Notes: generated by a model not told the origin, from the letters alone. 32,000 nt of DNA from Promethearchaeota archaeon (GCA_016933055.1 JAFGBS010000036.1:4933-36932); one strand, 5' to 3'; positions 1,835-30,580 are shown, counted from the first letter of the stretch. Made by a program: numbers and translations.

Positions 1835-1954
1835 GATTCTGTGGACCCGAACCTTTATCCGTCTCACCTACCCGCATGAACTGTTTAAAACTACGTTGTT
1901 AACTATTCAGACAATACTGTTACCTCTTCTACATGTGTTGAGAGAGGAAAAATG
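1835..1954 (+). repeat. Dispersed non-coding repeat, copy 1 (pairs with 8703-8822)
   Basis: Ungapped manual alignment to 8703-8822 gives 101/120 identities; weaker similarity extends to ~1820 and ~1990. Confidence 0.9.
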
Positions 1955-1994
1955 GATGAAAAATTATTTAAATCACTAGATAGATGTTGACTGG

Positions 1995-2174
1995 TTATAC
2001 TGGATTTGGAGGTGGGTTGGGATCATGCATAATTTCAACCACATCTGATTGAGAACTCTCTTCTTGCTCTCCAAACCACTCATTATCATTGTTTTGAGCA
2101 ATAACTTCGAGTGTGGAAGTTTCTATCGAGTCTGGAGTGTCAATGCTATAAACATGGGATGTTTGTCCACACAT
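1995..2174 (-). CDS. Small acidic, Pro-tailed hypothetical peptide (59 aa) or 3' remnant of a lost gene
   Basis: Manual translation MCGQTSHVYSIDTPDSIETSTLEVIAQNNDNEWFGEQEESSQSDVVEIMHDPNPPPNPV*. The frame stays open ~30 codons further upstream without a start codon. Confidence 0.3.
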   Translation of the reverse strand: MCGQTSHVYSIDTPDSIETSTLEVIAQNNDNEWFGEQEESSQSDVVEIMHDPNPPPNPV

Positions 2175-2440
2175 TATTTCTCTCTTGTTGCAGAAATTTA
2201 TACAATTCTCTTGAAGAACATGATTTAGAAGAAAGAGAACACGAAGAGGATGGGAGGGTGTTCGTCATGAAATTGACAAGATTGGGGTAATCTGTTGCCA
2301 TTTTGTTCGTTTAGGTATTCTTTAAAGATATTTTATTGGAATTTTATCGAAAACGAACAATCAGCACTTAAATTCAACAGTAAAATTATATACGAAATTT
2401 TAGATATACAGAATGAGTTCATTTTATTGAGGAGGTTTTT

Positions 2441-3385
2441 TTGGATAAAAATAATCAAGATTACCTATATTTACGTAAATTAGGATTATCACATGAAGAA
2501 ATCATAAATCGAATAAAACGGTACAGTAATCAGGGATTAACCGAAAGCGATGCATTAAAGACTCTAAAAACAGATGAAGAGAGAATCATTGAAATTCATA
2601 TCGAAATCGAAGGATTAAAAGTTTATTTTCTTAAGGTTCTTGCAGAGATTTTAGAGTTTCAAGTGATCCCAAATTTTCGTCAAGAACCTATTGATCTTGA
2701 ACTCTATGGTATAAACAATCAAAAACTGTATGAAATTAATTCATTACCTGTGTTGTTGGCAGTATTAGAAGAGATTAAAGCAGAAAATGAAAAACGAATA
2801 CCTGCAAAATATCCAGATTGGAATGATTATGGATATTTTCCTTATCATCGAAATCAAGCTATATCCAAATTATTAGAAAGTCGTGATTGGTATGTAGGAA
2901 GGTTAAAAACATATAAAAAACAAGGAATTTCAATAGATTTTCCATTCCAATCAGTAAAACCCACGTTTTTTAAAATTCCTGATAAAATCCAAAATACAAA
3001 CTTAATCTCGGTTATGATGCCTTTCAGAGAAGAATTTGATCCTATTTTTCAGGAAATCATGAAAGTTTGTGAAAACTTATCTATGGAATGCAAACGAGCT
3101 GATCAGATATTCGATAACTATATTGCAATTCAAGATGTGTTTGATTTAATATATCTCGCTCGTTGTATTATTGTGGAACTTACAGGAAAAAATCCGAATG
3201 TATTCTATGAGTTAGGGATTTCTCATGCTTTTGGGAAAAAAGTCATTCCGATTATCCGAAAAAGTGGAGAAAAAATTCCATTCGATGTGCAACATCACAA
3301 GGCTATCGAATATGAGGGTGATAAAATGGATGATTTCCGAGAGAAACTGGATAAACGACTAAAAATCATATTGAGTATTGCTTAG
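2441..3385 (+). CDS. Protein with C-terminal nucleoside 2-deoxyribosyltransferase-like (NDT/TIR-like) domain; putative nucleotide-cleaving defence effector
   Basis: SVMMPF...CKRADQI...IIVELTGKNPNVFYELGISHAFGKKVIPI...IPFDV is the characteristic NDT-like pattern; GAGGAGG SD upstream of the TTG start. Confidence 0.75.
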   Translation: MDKNNQDYLYLRKLGLSHEEIINRIKRYSNQGLTESDALKTLKTDEERIIEIHIEIEGLKVYFLKVLAEILEFQVIPNFRQEPIDLELYGINNQKLYEINSLPVLLAVLEEIKAENEKRIPAKYPDWNDYGYFPYHRNQAISKLLESRDWYVGRLKTYKKQGISIDFPFQSVKPTFFKIPDKIQNTNLISVMMPFREEFDPIFQEIMKVCENLSMECKRADQIFDNYIAIQDVFDLIYLARCIIVELTGKNPNVFYELGISHAFGKKVIPIIRKSGEKIPFDVQHHKAIEYEGDKMDDFREKLDKRLKIILSIA

Positions 3386-3508
3386 TTGAATGAGATTTCA
3401 TTCAAACTATCATAATCTTAATGGAATCGAATTTTACGTGAAAAAGGATTTTCAGGTAATTATTTAAGTCTCAATGTTAAAGGAATTCAATGGTATTATT
3501 ACTTTTTA

Positions 3509-6085
3509 ATGGGTCTAGGGGTAAAGATGAGTACGTTAACCAAAATGGGTGTGGAATTATATAATCTGATCAGCAACGTATTACGTTCTTATTCAAATGA
3601 AATCTCACCTTATGAAGCATTTGTCGATGAAATTGCTCAAAATTTCTTTGATTCTGCTAAAAAATATTATAGGTATTGCGTCAAGGAAAATGTAAAACCA
3701 ATAAATTCATCAATGAAAGTTCTTTTTATCGAAGATTATAATGGAAAACCAGCAATTGTAATTAAACAAACCGGTACAACAGGTATTATCCATAGAAAAG
3801 AATATGTCACATATTCTTTAACTCAAAAGGATAAGGATGAAGACGCTGCAGGAAGTCAAGGAGTTGGCTGGAAAATATGGTTTATGATATGCGATGAAGT
3901 GCATACAGAGACTATAGTCGATGGGAGATATTATCAAACTCTCCAAAGGGTAGAAAATAGAGATATAAAGGTCGCCCATAATGACGATAATTGGAGTACA
4001 TATTTTGAACATTTTCAAGACACATTAATAAGTGAAAATGGAGAAACTTCAATAAAGTTCTTGAATGTGAACAATTCACACGGTTTTAACGAAGATGAAT
4101 CAACAACATATTTTCAAGAATTATGGAAATGTTGTGAAAAAGTAATTCAGGAAAGATATTATTGGGCTCTGAAAAAATATCCTACATTTAGTGTTGATTT
4201 GATTTATACAAATTCAAAAAAAACTCAACCATCTCAGAAAGTCACTATCTCCCTTAATGAATACCCTCCTTTATATCCAGGATTAAATGATTCCGATTGC
4301 AGAACCTCAAATAAATTCATTCGTAACAAGACCAAAAATTACGGTGTGGTCAAAGATATCTTTGTTGGATTTACAAATGAAATTCATTCAAAAATAAATG
4401 ATGGAGTAGCAATTATTGTCAGAGATAGGGTAGTTGAATGGTATAATCCTAGGTCACAATGGGTTGGAACGCCTGGTGCTAATGGAAAATTAATTGGTCA
4501 TGTTTGTTGTGATTTTCTATATAAAAAAGACAATATGACTCATGATAAATTAAATGATATTTTTCCCGAAGTAAAACTGACTAGGCATTTCATAAGAACG
4601 TTGATACAGAAACTATACGTAAAAATAAATGAACTTCATGTTGTTGATGTGCCTAAAGTTTCACACGGAAATACAATTTTAACAACAATAAACAACGCAA
4701 TTGCTGAATTTATTGATAGTGAGGATTTGTTTTCAGAAGCAAAATCAGATATTGACTATGAACCTTTGGGAGAAGAACCATTTAATAAAACTCCTAAACC
4801 TGAGAAATTCATTTATATCAAAGGAATTTTATTAACTGAAAAAATTGAAGATGGAATTCCCCAAAAAATGAATGATACTGATCCATTAACTCCGAGTAAT
4901 GAATATAGCGCGTTAGTGGAAATTTTAAACACAAAAGATGAATGTGAAGCTATTGTCAATTACTCTTCATTTCCAAAATATTTTGAAATTAAAAGAGCGA
5001 TAAAAATATCCCCAGGAACCACTAAGGACATTTTTAAATTCCAGATACCCGAAGATGCAATGAGAGGAGCATTTCATTTAAAAAGTATTGTTAGATCTCA
5101 AGATGAAAAACTATTGGAAAAAAGGATCATTTCAAGAGAAATCCTACCTATAATTTCAAAGGTAGAATTATCTGAAAGAAATTTTGAGAGAGGGAATGAA
5201 TATCAAATTTCCTATAAGGTTTGTAGATCCTCTTTGAGGGGAAACAGAGAATTCTCGTGCAAAATATATGACAATGAAAATTTTGAAATTCATGAAGAAG
5301 GACCTATAACTTTAAAACGGGCTGAAACAGATAAAATTGAATCTTTTTATTTTAAAATTCCCCCTCAAGCACTAAGAGGGAGATATACTTTTGAGTATCA
5401 GGTAAAAAATGGACCAAATATCATACAAAAAGGAAGAGAATACTTCTTTGTGGAGTTATTCATCAATAGAATAAAATCATCAAAACGAATTGTAAAGTAC
5501 AATGAAAAATTTGATATTACCGTCGATCTTGAAAATAAAAGACAGATCCCTGTAGAAGATGCAGAATTAACAATAAGAATTGAAAATTCTAATCATTTTG
5601 AAATGAAAAAAGAATTTACAAACATTTCTATTCAGAAAAATTCAGACTTCGCAATAAAACTTGGAGATTTAGAATTTGATGAAGATTGTGATACAGGAAA
5701 ATATAGTGTTATTGTTGAATTCAAGCTAGAAGATGATTTTGCTCCAGAAGTGAAAACAACAAAAATTTTCCTCGAAACAGAAACTAGTACCAAAGATTCG
5801 AAGGGAGCTCTTAGTCATTTTGATTATAATAAGAGCATTAAAGGATATGAGGATAAAAATCTGGCAGTTTCTGTTGAAGGCACAATAATGATCAATACTT
5901 TTCATTATTTATTTAGGCGAATTGAAACTCCTACTGGGATTGATCTCAATCTATTCAAACAATGCATCATTCAAGCATTATGGTTTGCGTTTCGAGATCA
6001 GATAACAAAGGATAATAGATTTGAAGAAATGTGGGAATTTGAGAAATATATACTAGAGGATAAAAAATTGGGGGAGATTTTATGA
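3509..6085 (+). CDS. GHKL-family (MORC/MutL/Hsp90-like) ATPase with three tandem Ig-like beta-sandwich repeats
   Basis: Bergerat motifs: EIAQNFFD (ExxxNxxD), QTGTTGI (variant G1), AAGSQGVGWK (G2), GETSIKF. Three ~100-aa beta-rich repeats with FxIPxxAxRGxY/F-type corners; C-terminal IMINTFHYLF. True start may be ATG 3527. Confidence 0.75.
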   Translation: MGLGVKMSTLTKMGVELYNLISNVLRSYSNEISPYEAFVDEIAQNFFDSAKKYYRYCVKENVKPINSSMKVLFIEDYNGKPAIVIKQTGTTGIIHRKEYVTYSLTQKDKDEDAAGSQGVGWKIWFMICDEVHTETIVDGRYYQTLQRVENRDIKVAHNDDNWSTYFEHFQDTLISENGETSIKFLNVNNSHGFNEDESTTYFQELWKCCEKVIQERYYWALKKYPTFSVDLIYTNSKKTQPSQKVTISLNEYPPLYPGLNDSDCRTSNKFIRNKTKNYGVVKDIFVGFTNEIHSKINDGVAIIVRDRVVEWYNPRSQWVGTPGANGKLIGHVCCDFLYKKDNMTHDKLNDIFPEVKLTRHFIRTLIQKLYVKINELHVVDVPKVSHGNTILTTINNAIAEFIDSEDLFSEAKSDIDYEPLGEEPFNKTPKPEKFIYIKGILLTEKIEDGIPQKMNDTDPLTPSNEYSALVEILNTKDECEAIVNYSSFPKYFEIKRAIKISPGTTKDIFKFQIPEDAMRGAFHLKSIVRSQDEKLLEKRIISREILPIISKVELSERNFERGNEYQISYKVCRSSLRGNREFSCKIYDNENFEIHEEGPITLKRAETDKIESFYFKIPPQALRGRYTFEYQVKNGPNIIQKGREYFFVELFINRIKSSKRIVKYNEKFDITVDLENKRQIPVEDAELTIRIENSNHFEMKKEFTNISIQKNSDFAIKLGDLEFDEDCDTGKYSVIVEFKLEDDFAPEVKTTKIFLETETSTKDSKGALSHFDYNKSIKGYEDKNLAVSVEGTIMINTFHYLFRRIETPTGIDLNLFKQCIIQALWFAFRDQITKDNRFEEMWEFEKYILEDKKLGEIL

Positions 6086-7740
6086 CAGAGAAATTATTAG
6101 ACACCGATAAAGGAAAACAAGATTATATAGATCCTATTGTAGGTGAAGATCCACTACTAAATACAGAAAAATCAGGTAGAGTATCTCAGATAGCTCAAAA
6201 GTTGCACCAAGCTTTGAATTTCAATGATAATGAATGGATTCAACTTGCGTTAGACTTACTCGTTGGGAAGATGATTATGGATTATAAATATCTAGTTATG
6301 GTAAAATATTCAGAGTATATAGGATTAGGAAAACAGAATATTTTTCTGGTTCATGATATCGGGACACTTGTTAATGATTTTGTGTCAAAACGAGAAATAG
6401 ATTTAGAAAATAAAGAGTTTCGAAAGAGCTCAGGATTTACATTTAATCGAGGAAGTGTGATAAATCATCTAACCTCTCTAATAGATTTTTCGTCCAAAAA
6501 TGAAAAAAAATACAATTTCAATCAAACATATCTTCGAAATTTTTCAACTATTGCATATGAGTTTGACAAAAATGAATTGGATCCTGAAATCCCTGTATAC
6601 ATATATAAAGAATTAGTAGAACGAGTTCCAGTAGATATGTTTGAAACCCCTAATCAAAGAAAAAGGTTTCAAAATAATATATTAGAATTGCGTAGAGAAG
6701 AAACTTTCACAGACAGACACTTGAGGATTATAATAAATTTAGTAAGGGAAGATCCTATAAATAGAGCAAAAATTGAGTACATACGTCGAATTTTGCCTGA
6801 TGTAAAAGAAATTAAAACTTCTATGAGTTTTCCTGATGCTTTAAATTATGTCAAATCTATTGAAAAATCTGGTAAGCAGAAAAAAGAACAAGTACTTCCC
6901 AGTTTGGAACAGAATGGAGTGCTTCGTTTACCACAAGCTAATGATGTTTCAAAATTCATCAAAATTGTCCAAGATGTTTCTCATGGAATAACAAAACCAG
7001 AACAATTAGCCGATAATATAGAAATTTCTGAACGCCAGATACATTATTATAAGGATGCAGCTCAAATTCTAAATTTATTAACAGAGAATGGGAGAAATTA
7101 TACATTCACACTCACCTCTATTGGTCAAAAACTTGCTGAGACTAAAGACGAAAACGAACAGAATGAAATTTTATATCACCAAATAATGAAAACCGAAGTT
7201 ATTAAGCACATTTTCTTAATGTTAAAAGAAAGTCAAGAAGATTATATCCTCGTTGAAGAATACTTGAATGATTTAAAGCATAGGAGTGCTCTATCTGATT
7301 CTACGATCGCAAGAAGAACAGCAGCTATAATAAGCTGGATTAGATGGATTGAAAGTTACAATGAATTATTACGGATTGTCGAAGAAAAAATAATAGTTAA
7401 GAACGAATTCTCTTGGAATTGCGTTAAAAAACAAATTCTTGAAATTATCAATAAATATCGAACAATCAATACACTAGCTAATGGAAAACCAAATATTATC
7501 GAAGTATTTGATGATACAGGATTAATGGTAAAGACTGATCACGACTCAGAAGCAAAAAAAGTTTCATTTAACACAATTAAAGATGTATGGTTCAATTTAG
7601 TAGAATATGGAGAATTAGAACTGGATAATCATGAGCTGACCTCTTATAGAAGTTCGTTTGTTTGCTCTTTATTGTCTCAATTACCAATTGTCAATGTTTT
7701 AAAAGAGGGAAAAATCTCGATAAAATTGGTTGGGATTTAA
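6082..7740 (+). CDS. Multidomain putative DNA-binding protein (winged-helix PQAxD...RQxxYY module typical of restriction-associated proteins)
   Basis: ATGA overlap with the upstream stop. LPQANDVSKFIKIV...SERQIHYYKDAAQILNLL...FTLTSIGQKL resembles wHTH modules fused to restriction enzymes and methylases; no catalytic motif found. Confidence 0.6.
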   Translation: MTEKLLDTDKGKQDYIDPIVGEDPLLNTEKSGRVSQIAQKLHQALNFNDNEWIQLALDLLVGKMIMDYKYLVMVKYSEYIGLGKQNIFLVHDIGTLVNDFVSKREIDLENKEFRKSSGFTFNRGSVINHLTSLIDFSSKNEKKYNFNQTYLRNFSTIAYEFDKNELDPEIPVYIYKELVERVPVDMFETPNQRKRFQNNILELRREETFTDRHLRIIINLVREDPINRAKIEYIRRILPDVKEIKTSMSFPDALNYVKSIEKSGKQKKEQVLPSLEQNGVLRLPQANDVSKFIKIVQDVSHGITKPEQLADNIEISERQIHYYKDAAQILNLLTENGRNYTFTLTSIGQKLAETKDENEQNEILYHQIMKTEVIKHIFLMLKESQEDYILVEEYLNDLKHRSALSDSTIARRTAAIISWIRWIESYNELLRIVEEKIIVKNEFSWNCVKKQILEIINKYRTINTLANGKPNIIEVFDDTGLMVKTDHDSEAKKVSFNTIKDVWFNLVEYGELELDNHELTSYRSSFVCSLLSQLPIVNVLKEGKISIKLVGI

Positions 7741-8432
7741 TGAATTCACATGATGCTATTGCTCGGAAATTTGAGAATTATTTCCAAAACGCACGTATGA
7801 CTTCAAGCTATAAACCTGTGATGTTATTGTCAATTTTGTATCATATTAAACAAAGAAAATCCACGTATCTTCCTTCTGCGAATATTTATTTTATTTCATT
7901 GAATGATATCGCACTATTTTTTCTGAAATTCTATTTTTATACGCTTAAGTATTATGATCTTAACCATTTGACCAATAAAAATAACAAAATTGGGATTTAC
8001 AGAATAATTGAGAAATATTTCCGTGATTTCAATACATTCCCAGAGTACTTAAATCATAAAATTATCACAAAAACAATCAACCAATTATTTCGAAATGTTA
8101 TCTTCTTGCTACTGAATGATATATATTTATATGATTTTTACGATGAGCAATTTCAAGAATTTCGATTACCTCACGAGTTTATTGGTAAAGATGATTTTCG
8201 AGTTGTTATCAAAAATAAAAAAATTCGAGTCGAAGAAATTAAGTACTTAGGAATTAAAGAATCAGCATACCTTTATCTTAGTTTAAATTATACGAATCTT
8301 AAAAAGAAGATAAACCTAAATTTGATTCAATTTCTAAAAAAAGTAAATTACTCTTTTGATTCCTTTGATGAAATAGATAGATTTTATGATAATTTATCAA
8401 ATTTGAAAAATATGATGTCAGATTCTAATTAG
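7740..8432 (+). CDS. SBD-like (SYKxxLLxxI) winged-helix reader-domain protein lacking the usual C-terminal HNH nuclease
   Basis: TAATG overlap gives start at 7740 (track extends to 7662). TSSYKPVMLLSIL...ISLNDIALFFLKFY matches the N-terminal domain of many HNH restriction proteins; no CxxC/HNH motif before the stop. Confidence 0.55.
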   Translation: MNSHDAIARKFENYFQNARMTSSYKPVMLLSILYHIKQRKSTYLPSANIYFISLNDIALFFLKFYFYTLKYYDLNHLTNKNNKIGIYRIIEKYFRDFNTFPEYLNHKIITKTINQLFRNVIFLLLNDIYLYDFYDEQFQEFRLPHEFIGKDDFRVVIKNKKIRVEEIKYLGIKESAYLYLSLNYTNLKKKINLNLIQFLKKVNYSFDSFDEIDRFYDNLSNLKNMMSDSN

Positions 8433-8702
8433 CTCAGAAATTCTATTTCTAAAGATATGGTAATTTGTCGTCTTGGACTCTCTGGAAAGAATGGAAACTA
8501 CCGAAAAAGTATTTTTTCAAATTAGGATTAATTCGGTAGAATTTGCTAAAAATATGAATATAATCTTGGAACAGCACTATCGAAATTTTTTATTGTATTT
8601 TAAATCAGTAAAAATGTAAAATGCAAAGTCCAAAGTGTAAACAATAGGAATTGCTATTGGTCCACATCTTTAATGTGATAACATATTTTTGATTCCATTT
8701 TT

Positions 8703-8822
8703 GGTTCTGTGGATACGAGCCTTTATCCGTGCCACCTACCCGCACGAACCGTTTAACACTATATTGTTACCTATTCGGACTATACTGTTACCTCTTTAAC
8801 ATGTGTCAAGTGAGGAAAAATG
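8703..8822 (+). repeat. Dispersed non-coding repeat, copy 2 (pairs with 1835-1954)
   Basis: 101/120 identity to copy 1; ends in GAGG-AAAAATG; weaker similarity extends to ~8687 and ~8848. Confidence 0.9.
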
Positions 8823-8910
8823 ATTTATATCACACGACAGATATTGATAAATAGTGTTTAACCAAATTTCTATTTTTATTTTTTGTGTGTAATGATTATG
8901 GCATCACAAA

Positions 8911-12439: not shown

Positions 12440-13786
12440 ATGAGTATGTTGAGTCAAAACCTTAAGAAAACCATCCAAAACATGCATACAATCCCTTGGA
12501 AACTATATCTTTCTGTGTTATTGACACATCTTTTACCAACAATTTACGTTACCATTCGCATTTACTTCCTCGGTGATTTACCCAGCGATTGGGGTGTAAA
12601 CATTGCTTCGCAACTAGTTTGGATAAGTTTAGTTTTAGAAGTCATACAGGAAGGTCTCATCCTACCACTTTTTTACATTATTGGTAAGACTTCTAAAGAT
12701 CGGAACGAAACAATCAATAAGGTAAAGACTGGTTTACTAATTACGATTGGAATTCATGTTCTCATTCTCGCAATTGTTGGGATATTCACTCCCGCTTTCG
12801 TACGGGCAATGGCTCAAAATCCCGCATTACAAGACGCTACTGTAGTCTATATTCGCTTAGAACTAATTTCACTACTCATTCAAAGTGTTTTCAAATTTCT
12901 CTTTATCTTATTCATAATTTATGACCAAAGAGTAACCATTTATCTGCTTTTACTCGTGCAGATGATTGGAACGGTGATTTTGGATACATTTTTTGTTAGT
13001 TCGTTTTCATTTTCGCTTAATCTAGGAGTTAATGGCATCGCTTATTCAAATATCATTATCTATTCCCTCTTAGTAGGGATGAGCATTTATCGGGCTATTA
13101 GAACTTTTAAGCTAACGAAAAAAGATTGGCGGGTGCATACCAGCTTTACATGGCTGAAGGAATGGGGACGTGTCGGAGGGTATTCAGCTATGGATTCCTT
13201 CATTCGCAACCTCTTCTATATGGTATTTATTATTCGAATGATGAATATAATAGCCGAACAAGGCACGTATTGGGTTGCGAACGGATTTATTTGGAGTTGG
13301 TTATTACTACTCGTTTATCCGTTGACCGATATCATTAAGCAAAAAATTGCTACAACCCTTCCCGAAAAACTCAAAGGATTTTTAAATCCATATTATCTAT
13401 TTTCAACGATTATTGTTCTTCTTTGGTTTCTGACGATGCCAGGATGGATGTGGTTCATCACAAAAGTTCTCAATGCTGCGGAACCACAAACAGTATTTCG
13501 ATTAGTGCTTTTATTGTTACCAGCCTATATTTCTTTTGTGTATAATACCGTAGCGGATGCCCTTTTCTATGCCATTGGCAAAACTGAATCTCTTGCTATT
13601 CAAACGATTCTAACTAATATTTCTGTGTACGGAATTGCCTTTATCCTCTTTATTACTGGTAATTTCATCCCCACGTTATATTCTATCGCAATTTTGTTTA
13701 GTATAGGCATAGTAATTGACGGGATCTTGACTTTCATACTGCTACGTTATTATATTCGCAAATATGAAATGAATTCCACGCACTGA
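12440..13786 (+). CDS. MATE-family (Na+-driven multidrug efflux-like) membrane transporter
   Basis: 448 aa, about 12 hydrophobic segments; IYFLGDLPSDWGVNIASQL...EVIQEGLILPLF and EQGTYWVANGFIWSWLL family pattern; GGAGA SD. Confidence 0.75.
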   Translation: MSMLSQNLKKTIQNMHTIPWKLYLSVLLTHLLPTIYVTIRIYFLGDLPSDWGVNIASQLVWISLVLEVIQEGLILPLFYIIGKTSKDRNETINKVKTGLLITIGIHVLILAIVGIFTPAFVRAMAQNPALQDATVVYIRLELISLLIQSVFKFLFILFIIYDQRVTIYLLLLVQMIGTVILDTFFVSSFSFSLNLGVNGIAYSNIIIYSLLVGMSIYRAIRTFKLTKKDWRVHTSFTWLKEWGRVGGYSAMDSFIRNLFYMVFIIRMMNIIAEQGTYWVANGFIWSWLLLLVYPLTDIIKQKIATTLPEKLKGFLNPYYLFSTIIVLLWFLTMPGWMWFITKVLNAAEPQTVFRLVLLLLPAYISFVYNTVADALFYAIGKTESLAIQTILTNISVYGIAFILFITGNFIPTLYSIAILFSIGIVIDGILTFILLRYYIRKYEMNSTH

Positions 13787-16438: not shown

Positions 16439-16575
16439 TGGTATTAGGGATCCTTTAAACCCAATAATCCATCGAATCAAAAATTTTAGTCACATAAACC
16501 ATTTCGATAAAGTGGGCAATAAATAAGACAGATATCCTAAGAAGAATTTGGATTTTTTAATACACATAGTCTAAT

Positions 16576-16905
16576 GATGCTAGGATGAATGTGATTCTTC
16601 ACAAATGTTCTGAATGCTGCGGAACCAAAGGTAGTATTTCAATTAGTGCTTCTGTTATTACCAGCTTATATTTCCTTTGTGTATAATACCGTAGCGGATG
16701 CCTTGTTCTATGCTATAGGCAAAACCGAATCTCTTGCAATTCAGACAATTGTAACTAATATTTCAGTCTATGGAACAGCCTTTGTTCTCTTCATCACGGG
16801 TAATTTCATCCCTACGGTATATTCCATCGCAATACTGTTTAGTATCGGCATAATTATCGATAGGACTTGACTTTTCTATTATTACGCCATTTTGTTCATA
16901 AACAT
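16576..16905 (+). pseudogene. 3' fragment of a second MATE-family gene, paralogous to 13435-13780
   Basis: 207/246 nt identity over 82 aligned codons, with 24 of 32 changed codons synonymous; 1-nt deletion near 16867; no 5' part. Confidence 0.9.
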
Positions 16906-23729: not shown

Positions 23730-23831
23730 ATGAAAATATTAACACCAACGAAAAATATTACGGAATTTATTGAATATTGGTCAAATTTCTACACATCAAC
23801 ATCTATACGGCTTAACATAATTAAAAATTGA
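23730..23831 (+). pseudogene. N-terminal gene fragment (33 aa), apparently of the same family as 24119-24628
   Basis: MKILTPTKNITEFIEYWSNFY...*; FIxYWSxxY is the N-terminal motif I associate with the family ending LRxIDRALWxxGK. Confidence 0.4.
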
Positions 23832-23935
23832 TCCATTTAATGCTTGACTATCGTAAAACACCGTCAAACTCGTATAATAGAATCAATTTACGAATTTACA
23901 CCAAATTTAATACCGTCCAGATGTAGAATACTTAA

Positions 23936-24033
23936 GTCCGAAGTGCGGGTCCTTGGGCGGAGGAATAAACACCTATCTCGGATAGGTCAAAAGCCGAATG
24001 CGAAGCATGAGGCTTATTCATGTTAAAATGAAT
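23936..24033. other. GC-enriched cluster of consecutive hairpins (structured DNA/RNA element)
   Basis: ACCTATC/GATAGGT (23971-23987); AAGCC-GA-ATGC-GAA-GCAT-GA-GGCTT (23991-24015); ATTCAT/ATGAAT (24016-24033); a weaker stem at 23936-23961. Confidence 0.7.
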
Positions 24034-24118
24034 CTAAATCCACTCCAAATTGACAGAAGTTCGTACTATATACCCCCTATTCCCCTAACGTGGGTATCAC
24101 GGAATAGAATTTTACTAA

Positions 24119-24628
24119 TCAAAATACAGTAACATAGATATTGAATATGATCAGAACATCAGAATTCAAAACAACACATATCAGCCTTTATCAAAGGCTA
24201 ATCTAAAACATCTTCTACATTGGAAAATGGATTGGAAAGGAAATCTGCTCAATAAATGGACAAATAATGTCTCTCAACATCTTTCAGAAATTAATAATCT
24301 ACGAAATGCAAATTCAATCAATGAAATTGTAATTATGAACTTCATAAATACCATTCCAAAGAAAATTGTGAAAAGTGGTAATGTGCTGAGGGTATTTATG
24401 ATGCATTTAGCCCGTCCTTTGGAAGTACCAATCCTTGACCGCTTTGCTATACTCACATATGATGTTGTAACTGGTCAAAACATTTCTTTATTAATAAACA
24501 GAACTAACTTCATATCTTATCATTATCTGGATTATCGTGATTACATATTAAAACTCCAAAATCAAACAGGATCTTCAATTCGAGAAATTGATAGAGCATT
24601 TTGGGTGTATGGAAAGCATATTTTATGA
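24119..24628 (+). pseudogene. 5'-disrupted uncharacterised protein, possibly HhH-glycosylase-like fold
   Basis: Frame open from 24119 (after TAA at 24116): SKYSNIDIEYDQNI...KHLLHWK...VFMMHLARPLEVPILDRF...REIDRAFWVYGK; track start 24227 is internal. Confidence 0.45.
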
Positions 24629-28242: not shown

Positions 28243-28430
28243 GAGTTCCTTAAACCCCTAAGAAATTCGGTATTTGACGTTTGACGTAGTATTATGATGG
28301 TTTCATGTTAAACGTTTATAGTTTTCACGGGATAGGATGGAATAGGTGTTGATTATTCAAAATTTTTAGTTAACGTTCAAAAATCACAACGGATGAAAAT
28401 AAATAATCCATTCACACCTATACTATATAT

Positions 28431-30065: not shown

Positions 30066-30580
30066 ATACATATAGTAAACGAAGGAACAGATATTTAATT
30101 TATCGAACAGTGCATATAAAAACATTAAAATAAATCAGAAGGTAACTCATCCGTGTGATATAAATCATTTTTAAACATTTGTAAGCTAAAAGGCATTAAA
30201 ATTGCCAGAATCACGATATCATCTTTTATTCGTAATTTTCCCCATATCATTGTAAACTTAGATGAAGATCTGATCATCACTGCAGGGAAATTAAATGCCA
30301 GCACCGAACCGATTTGTCCTACATTGAATGTATGAGTATTGCGTTTTGTCTAAATAATGACGTAACATTTCACATAACCGAGAAAAACCTCATGAAGATT
30401 CCACAATACACCCTACAACGTTTAAAAGTTGTTAAATGTAATTTTTAAAATAACCTATAAGCGATTCTCATTCTATAATTTAATCAATCTTTTCATTCTA
30501 TTTTTCTTTTGCTCTATTTGCGCTTTTGTCTAAAACGCAAAACTAAATAAGTAGAAAATTCTACTATTCTACTGATAATT

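Follow-up and report, generated by a model that had tools for sequence, protein, structure and literature searches.

The two direct repeats that bracket a candidate defence operon in the window (the whole 32,000-nt stretch of Promethearchaeota archaeon DNA analysed here) are very probably orphan relics of a miniature inverted-repeat transposable element (MITE), whose family is scattered in the host genome, and their bracketing arrangement is incidental on this reading. The original prediction named a MITE relic as one of three options, next to a recombination or operator site and an orphaned 5' leader RNA; it is the option favoured by the anatomy of the element, its dispersal, its TA borders and the existence of near-identical mobile copies.

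The repeat pair itself is real. Positions 1835-1954 and 8703-8822 align without gaps at 101 of 120 positions, and the pair is recovered with a BLAST E value of 7.8e-35 in a search of the whole 3.76-Mb genome. The 120-bp core described originally stands, but not as the full length of the repeat: homology reaches 1794-1991 (copy 1, 198 bp; nhmmer and sequence-only model matches at C13:6726-6924, and alignments) and 8660-8848 (copy 2, 189 bp; BLAST and nhmmer/model matches), both on the + strand. Aligned over their full length, the copies are ~80% identical with one 11-bp indel; an 11-bp tandem duplication within copy 1 (GAAAAATGGAT/GAAAAATTATT) is absent from copy 2. Both window copies are closed by ~20-bp imperfect terminal inverted repeats (TIRs) that had gone unseen. 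In copy 1, the left TIR (TTCAAATTTGTGACGTGATAG, 1794-1814; alignments and TIR scan) has decayed and lacks one base of the family consensus, and the right TIR (TAAATCACTAGATAGATGTTGAC, 1969-1991) is a minus-strand match in the TIR scan with 1 mismatch (C13:6903-6922). In copy 2, the left TIR (TCCACATCTTTAATGTGATA, 8661-8680) has 2 mismatches (C13:13593-13612) and the right TIR (TATCACACGACAGATATTGAT, 8828-8848) is again a minus-strand match with 1 mismatch (C13:13760-13779). The ends (A/G)TCAACATCTGTnnnGTGATA ... TATCACnnnACAGATGTTGAC are present in all copies of the family, every full copy carries the ~20-bp TCAACATCTGTnnnGTGATA repeat at its two ends with 0-3 mismatches, and element size ranges from 187 to 220 bp, with indels of 1 and 11 bp. 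The flanks of the window copies are decayed (AT..TG for copy 1 and TG..AA for copy 2) rather than clean TA.

Most internal features reported originally were recovered, and they recur as traits of the family. The octamer pair TGTTAMCT-N13-TGTTAMCT has just two occurrences, 1897/1918 and 8765/8786, where 100 shuffles predict 0.00; each lies within two tandem 21-bp units of its copy (motif scan): 1890-1931 in copy 1, with octamers TGTTAACT (1897) and TGTTACCT (1918), and 8758-8799 in copy 2 (ACTATATTGTTACCTATT / ACTATACTGTTACCTCTT). The palindrome ACATGT is found at 1931 in copy 1 and at 8799 in copy 2, and no frame of either window copy, on either strand, is free of stops. The GTTRC core at 21-bp spacing is retained in all six copies of the host genome, while in the sister-species subfamily the first 21-bp unit has degenerated. 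Conserved positions cluster to some degree along the element (30 columns fall in runs of at least 8; p = 0.005 by column shuffling). The 21-bp units, ACATGTGT and the A-rich run with TTTAWAT would be family traits passed down from a master copy, and the internal features would not be devices dedicated to the genes that the copies enclose.

The host is an Asgard-type archaeon, and its genome has TBP genes and a full-length actin homologue. Six copies of the element (family 1) lie on five contigs of this genome, 74-86% identical to one another, beside unrelated genes (ldh, a CBM96 surface protein, an aminotransferase and others). Copies spread genome-wide as a plain MITE were the outcome that the original prediction had named as counting against a boundary role, and this is essentially what is found: the six copies, together with ~60 copies of a related family. 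Copy 2 is nearer to a copy on contig C11 (86%) and to a truncated copy, L044, the one found by pattern scan of metagenomes (90%), than to copy 1 (80%). As judged by these identities, neither window copy is the closest relative of the other, and the two probably inserted separately. Pattern scans of genome contigs gave 11 matches of ~20 nt, all attributable to chance, and those of viral contigs gave no match to the element. A solo relic of the family-1 right end is also noted in the window on the - strand (30152-30181), with 21 bases identical to copy 2 (AAAAATGATTTATATCACACG).

Movement of the family is evident in the sister species, which holds 3-5 copies, 3-4 of them 95-100% identical, at different loci and contigs. 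For two of these, on contig C65, the shared homology is exactly 192 bp (TA + 188 bp + TA) and the flanks are unrelated; homology that ends at these borders in unrelated flanks is the signature of recent TA-targeted transposition. The family has been amplified separately in each lineage, as copies cluster by genome (74-86% identity in the host and 95-100% in the sister species, compared to 57-66% between the two), a pattern that points to transposon bursts and not to conserved orthologous regulatory sites. An empty site was sought through the sister-species orthologue and through a paralogous stretch of 650 bp adjacent to the C6 copy, neither of which provided a clean filled/empty pair; in these comparisons homology begins only at or after the last bases of the element.

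Based on these observations, a transposase supplied in trans would bind the ~20-bp ends of the ~190-bp element, excise it and insert it at a TA dinucleotide, which would become duplicated on both sides. Such behaviour would be that of the IS630/Tc1-mariner group, with cut-and-paste as the presumed mechanism and the transposase type likewise presumed. The family has the small non-coding body, TIRs, dispersed copies, TA duplication (in the young sister-species copies) and movement of a MITE, and, as in the IS630/Tc1-mariner group, it targets and duplicates TA. A search of the host and sister-species genomes for a related autonomous element, or a DDE_3/mariner transposase, that shares these ends found none: DDE_3 and mariner domains are absent from the host genome (91% complete) and DDE_3 is absent from that of the sister species (76% complete). 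The sole transposase match is a broken DDE_Tnp_1 relic with different ends. Within the order, 15 of 81 genomes do have IS630-type (DDE_3) genes, and the DNA adjacent to them is without matching inverted ends. Clustering of 246 ORFs near the copies revealed no recurrent gene family, transposase or recombinase, the small clusters being metabolic paralogues. Long parent elements were also considered between inverted TIR-like 12-mers (0.7-6 kb apart); these enclose ordinary genes, and one such match falls within a 664-aa ORF. Since both genomes are incomplete metagenome assemblies (MAGs) and no transposase was found, the family is best termed orphan.

A larger family (family 2) has ~60 copies of 320-450 bp in the host genome, with similar ends (AATCAACATCTATTCCGTGATA...GAATAGATGTTGATTA). 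Among scorable ends, TA flanks are present at 14 of 22 left and 10 of 16 right ends, and three back-to-back elements use one common TA. A full-length copy lies in the window at 23763-24143 on the - strand (nhmmer C13:28695-29075, E 1.7e-83; BLAST). Like family 1, family 2 (e.g., this copy and C27:107254-107597) has ends of the form TA + A/GTCAACATCTA/GT ... GTGATA and an internal CTACCCGCAC block, and some members have TGTTAC motifs at 12- or 21-bp spacing. One copy on contig C36 is a hybrid of the two families. Family 1 differs in being shorter, in its copy number (six vs ~60) and in its own internal sequence, and the two profiles do not cross-match at E 1e-3. The contig holding the window carries further relics in addition to its family-2 copy.

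The bracket itself invites other explanations. A recombination or operator site specific to the enclosed system does not accord with the sister species, where a similar direct pair, 3.2 kb apart, encloses two VIT1 transporter genes and an ORC fragment. Excision or amplification of the module by recombination between the copies, as first suggested, is disfavoured by a longest identical run of only 15 bp. A related scheme, a composite of two MITEs, is quite improbable: with inverted ends on each MITE, a transposase could pair the outer left end (copy 1) with the outer right end (copy 2) and move the 6.7-kb four-gene module as a whole, or homologous recombination between the copies could delete or duplicate it. 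MITE pairs that mobilise intervening genes occur in bacteria (e.g., integron mobilisation units), and here, too, two direct copies of one MITE flank a discrete accessory module, one whose 858-aa GHKL protein was not found in 60 relatives, with the sister-species pair as a comparable case. Unlike such composite units, the outer ends are among the most decayed of the family and the outer flanks (AT and AA) provide no common target duplication, no second location of the module is known, and the transposase is absent; the 80% identity and short identical run of the copies likewise argue against the scheme. The source contig is, moreover, unbroken across both copies, and the genes beyond the bracket are accessory as well (distant homologues in 4 of 20 and 1 of 20 relatives). 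In the sequencing runs, the two metatranscriptomes of the source study gave no coverage of the stretch, a second DNA run contains the same strain in short fragments, and the read joints listed, which have sides of only 20-22 nt, include none that connects copy 1 with copy 2; these runs carry no weight for or against expression, excision or recombination. The contig is a variable region that gathers such insertions, hence the location of two copies 6.9 kb apart.

It is highly improbable that the repeats mark out gene cassettes as targets of site-specific recombination, as integron attC sites or Xer-type modules do. Direct repeats with palindromic ends do surround discrete gene modules in two species, and imperfectly palindromic repeats in direct orientation between accessory modules are also the arrangement of integron cassettes. 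Unlike attC sites, however, most copies are solitary and dispersed, beside housekeeping or surface-protein genes, and neither an integrase nor any other recombinase recurs among the neighbouring ORFs. The copies also diverge by 14-26% with no conserved crossover core besides the transposon-like ends, and the TA+element+TA borders match transposition, not recombination cores. There is a slim chance that the elements belong to an unrecognised, recently active TA-targeting transposon system of Asgard archaea, with a transposase outside the families searched, in which MITEs deliver outward TATA promoters and pairs of them move or rewire accessory (defence) modules; if so, the bracket in the window would be a MITE-built mobile cassette.

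The reading as a structured noncoding RNA or orphaned 5' leader, with the element as a transcript and the three-way junction at 8703-8750 as its functional fold, is hardly credible. Copy 2 is able to form three perfect short helices and the terminal repeats could pair as a closing stem; however, the junction is perfect in copy 2 alone and lacks covariation, as had been suspected from the start. Across the six copies, 79.3% of cells pair compared to 78.2% in shuffles, compensatory cells number 1 of 82, the covariation score is 0.138 vs 0.123 for shuffled alignments, and the G2-C47 pair holds in one of six copies. Neither family 1 nor family 2 matches Rfam, whether at gathering or at relaxed thresholds, the consensus fold (Alifold) is only about -10 kcal/mol on either strand, and the junction region is swapped for unrelated sequence in the sister-species subfamily and the C36 copy. 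The ORFs 3' of GAGGAAAAATG are 12 and 13 codons long, as originally noted, but the accompanying suggestion of a Shine-Dalgarno (SD) sequence and start codon fails in an archaeal host, with the ORF reduced to M-I-stop in two copies and the mini-ORFs not conserved. Bacterial readings of the element (a sigma-70 extended -10 box, a LytTR-type 21-bp operator, SD plus start) are inapplicable because the host is an archaeon. A CRISPR leader was rejected, with no repeat arrays downstream of any copy, as was a small conserved peptide on either strand, the frames being broken in other copies.

A MITE origin is compatible with later exaptation, and it is conceivable, if rather unlikely, that the copies have come to serve as portable signals for archaeal transcription. 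The upstream transcript would terminate at T5 runs close to the left end. Located 24 nt inside the right end, TTTAWATC with its A-rich run would form an outward BRE/TATA promoter for the genes at 2441-8432 (after copy 1) and from 9651 (after copy 2), and a regulator could bind the 21-bp units. The putative TATA-like elements on the + strand are TTTAAATC (1967-1974, outward, following an A-rich run) in copy 1 and TTTATATC (8824-8831, preceded by GAAAAATGA) in copy 2. Their motif matches the TTTAWA type of TATA-like hexamer in this genome, which peaks at -32 to -27 from start codons, and would put the start 3-8 nt past the right end. In six of eight copies the orientation is that of the next gene (one downstream gene in the sister species is convergent), in two the element starts 12-21 nt past the stop codon of a gene that reads in its direction, and the conserved blocks are clumped. 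Against this, TATA-like hexamers are common by chance in a genome of 69% A+T, the distance to the next ORF varies from ~80 to 1350 nt and the orientation bias is not significant. The young mobile subfamily of the sister species, moreover, has TTTCTATC at the TATA-like position, and its C65 pair is antisense to the genes enclosed. Read the other way round, the motif might just as well be what remains of an inward transposase promoter of the parent element. The clumped conservation and co-directional bias leave room for a secondary host function that the MITE copies may have acquired.

With the repeats read as MITE relics, the candidate defence operon (2441-8432) has no dedicated recombination or operator sites at its borders; therefore, both its limits and its regulation need other arguments. 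For the mobile-element catalogue of this Asgard-type genus, a small and precisely bounded MITE family (TA + 188 bp + TA) is an addition, and its recent activity in the sister species with no known transposase provides a search target, an ORF flanked by TA-GTCCACATCTGT... Such repeats break assemblies and mimic 'cassettes'; thus, knowledge of the family aids annotation of other regions of the genome.

TA-targeting MITEs moved by IS630/Tc1-mariner-type transposases are known from other prokaryotes (e.g., Sulfolobus SM1/ISC1048, the Neisseria Correia elements, pneumococcal RUP and cyanobacterial Nezha) and can bear promoter-like signals at their ends. In a full-text literature search, 'Asgard' and 'miniature inverted-repeat transposable' occurred together in no paper. 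The family described here differs from these MITEs in that no parent IS or transposase was found in the two genomes of the genus and in its host, an Asgard-type archaeon. By contrast, it resembles them in size (~190 bp), in its non-coding body, in TIRs with TA on both flanks, and in dispersed intergenic copies that arise in lineage-specific bursts.

The direct repeats that flank the candidate defence genes (2441-8432) are copies of a longer element with defined ends. Alignment confirms the originally predicted gapless 120-bp pair, 1835-1954 and 8703-8822, at 101/120 identical positions, and the two are a significant match to one another in a BLAST search of the whole 3.76-Mb genome (E 7.8e-35). 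The paired octamer TGTTAMCT-N13-TGTTAMCT is found at two sites only within the window, these two repeats (0 expected from shuffles), and the first description also holds for the ACATGT palindrome, the stops in every frame and the ORFs of 12-13 codons. The 120 bp form a core, however, rather than the complete repeat: on an alignment of all copies, homology reaches 1794-1991 (copy 1) and 8660-8848 (copy 2), and the element is closed by imperfect terminal inverted repeats of ~20 bp, (A/G)TCAACATCTGTnnnGTGATA on the left and TATCACnnnACAGATGTTGAC on the right.

BLAST, nhmmer and a sequence-only covariance model agree on six copies of this ~190-bp element (family 1) in the host genome: copies 1 and 2, C11:3988-4176, C17:30460-30647, C6:420165-420363 and C36:103576-103795, the last a hybrid in which the left half differs. 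The adjoining genes are unrelated, and include those for a lactate dehydrogenase, a CBM96/Ig surface protein, an aminotransferase, a TPR protein, a tail-collar-domain protein and a D5-type primase. A terminal-repeat scan of the same genome uncovers a larger related repeat (family 2; 320-450 bp; ~60 nhmmer hits, ~23 full-length), which has ends of the same kind (AATCAACATCTATTCCGTGATA ... GAATAGATGTTGATTA; AATCAACATCTAT...), shares the CTACCCGCAC block with family 1 and carries variable inserted hairpins. The window itself holds a full-length family-2 copy on the minus strand (23763-24143), a partial copy on the plus strand (28265-28355) and, between two minus-strand ORFs, a minus-strand stretch at 30152-30181 that matches the right end of copy 2 exactly over 21 nt (AAAAATGATTTATATCACACG) and is probably what remains, as a solo right end, of a seventh family-1 copy. 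Since one full family-2 copy and several relics fall in the same window, the density of these elements on its contig is several-fold above the genome average. Clustering of the 246 ORFs neighbouring the repeats gives no recurrent gene and no transposase.

Among the relatives searched (41 by family-1 and family-2 DNA; 14 family genomes by the family-1 sequence-only model), the elements are restricted to this genus. The sister species (G001) has five hits to the sequence-only model, four of them mutually 95-100% identical, although two of these four, each at a contig end, may be the two halves of a single copy. Identity is 74-86% within the host genome, 95-100% within the sister species and 57-66% between the two, the pattern expected of separate amplification bursts rather than of conserved orthologous sites. 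Contig C65 of the sister species carries two family-1 copies (loci L080 and L078; C65:27090-30455) that are 97% identical, in direct orientation and 3.2 kb apart; two VIT1-family transporter genes and an ORC/Cdc6-like fragment lie between them, antisense to the elements. The homology shared by these copies is exactly 192 bp, consisting of TA, 188 bp (GTCCACATCTGT ... ACAGATGTTGAC) and TA, with unrelated flanks. In family 2, TA is likewise the commonest flank (14/22 on the left and 10/16 on the right, scorable ends only), and a single TA is common to three back-to-back elements. Such a flank pattern is what insertion into TA with TA duplication predicts. A MITE relic was one option in the original prediction, and the dispersal of the copies beside unrelated genes, their terminal inverted repeats and the TA + 188 bp + TA structure in the sister species bear it out.

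Copies 1 and 2 are thus two decayed copies of an orphan MITE in a variable region rather than a device bracketing the candidate defence system. Five lines of evidence speak for an incidental bracket. Firstly, copies 1 and 2 are 80% identical overall, while copy 2 is 86% identical to the C11 copy and 90% identical to L044, a copy found truncated on an unrelated metagenome contig; therefore, the pair is not a local duplication. Secondly, no identical run between them exceeds 15 bp, so that they offer homologous recombination a poor substrate, which speaks against excision or amplification of the intervening genes by recombination between the copies. Thirdly, the 858-aa GHKL protein encoded between the copies is not found in 60 relatives, and the genes just outside are also patchy (distant homologues in 4/20 and 1/20 relatives, none in the sister species); thus, the copies mark no core/accessory border. 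Fourthly, the sister species has its own direct pair, on C65, around the transporter genes and the ORC/Cdc6-like fragment. Finally, the source-sample contig runs unbroken across both copies.

Other repeats and possible relics are apparent in the window and elsewhere in the host genome. The gene at 7662-8432, a paralogue of C13:3477-4565 on the window's contig, looks 3'-truncated, with a decayed tail ending <=40 nt from copy 2, because the 'intergenic' segment 8509-8622, immediately upstream of copy 2, shares 80% identity with the 3' part of that paralogue's coding sequence (C13:4410-4523, outside the window on its upstream side). Within the window, a second direct repeat (84% identity over 296 nt, copies 3141 bp apart) pairs 13429-13724, within the 3' part of a 448-aa ORF (12440-13786), with 16570-16865, which is located between small ORFs and may be a duplicated gene fragment. 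On C6, 650 bp downstream of the family-1 copy are duplicated 4 kb away at 84% identity (C6:419945-420161 against C6:416153-416358, plus another 450 bp), with homology setting in within the element's final 9 bp. Behind the C11 copy, an ORF-poor gap of 1.3 kb includes a 439-nt stretch (L026; C11:2642-3077) that is 80% identical to C31:3470-3896 and lies beside the D5-type primase gene (C11:705-2366); together, stretch and gene suggest an integrated element next to ldh. At C15:165700-166092, the position that is orthologous to a sister-species family-1 insertion 3' of a conserved gene, the host genome carries different TIR-like sequences (ATCAATCAACACCTATCC, GTCAACATGGAT), which another family may have left there as a relic.

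The host is an archaeon of Asgard type, as its genome has a full-length archaeal SSU rRNA (1461 bits), four loci for TATA-binding protein and a full-length actin homologue (435 bits). A bacterial reading of the element (extended -10 box, LytTR-like 21-bp operator) is void in an archaeal host, as is the 'SD plus start' once proposed at GAGG-AAAAATG. This segment is followed by TTTAWATC, 24 nt short of the right end. Across the host genome, hexamers of the same TATA-like type (TTTAWA) have a sharp maximum at -32 to -27 from ATG start codons, which makes TTTAWATC a plausible outward archaeal promoter. A second peak lies at ~-55, and together the two peaks point to many leaderless mRNAs plus a short-leader class. 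The genome is 69% A+T, however, the distance from the element to the next gene is highly variable, the orientation bias is 6/8 and the motif is weaker in the young copies of the sister species. Read in the opposite direction, TTTAWATC could be a relic of an inward promoter of the parent element.

The predicted three-way junction is perfect in copy 2 only and does not hold up as a functional fold: over six copies, 79.3% of cells pair versus 78.2% in shuffles, with one compensatory cell. The RNAalifold energy is ~-10 kcal/mol on either strand, no Rfam family matches, and the junction region is swapped for other sequence in the sister-species subfamily and the C36 copy. The 21-bp tandem units are characteristic of the family, with a GTTRC core kept in 6/6 host copies; the first unit is degenerate in the sister species, and the inserted modules of family 2 hold related TGTTAC motifs at a spacing of 12 or 21 bp. 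The left end and the right ~75 bp (ATACTGTTA ... ACATGTGT ... ATGATTTnTATCAC ... ACAGATGTTGAC) are conserved between the two subfamilies; these are the parts in which transposase binding or promoter activity would be expected.

The incomplete MAGs of the host (91%) and the sister species (76%) both lack DDE_3 (IS630 type), and the mariner domain is absent from the 91% complete host MAG, which that search covered. The host genome's sole transposase trace, a broken DDE_Tnp_1 relic, has different ends. DDE_3 genes are found in 15/81 genomes of the order, and the DNA around them has no matching inverted ends. For now, the family is best described as orphan, a label that is provisional because both genus genomes are incomplete. 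No paper joining 'Asgard' with 'miniature inverted-repeat transposable' turned up in a full-text literature search, and MITEs receive a single mention in a 2026 survey of archaeal insertion sequences. As a kind, the element is nevertheless ordinary: it has the structural features of a MITE in all but a known autonomous partner, and it behaves like the TA-targeting MITEs that are mobilised by IS630/Tc1-mariner transposases.
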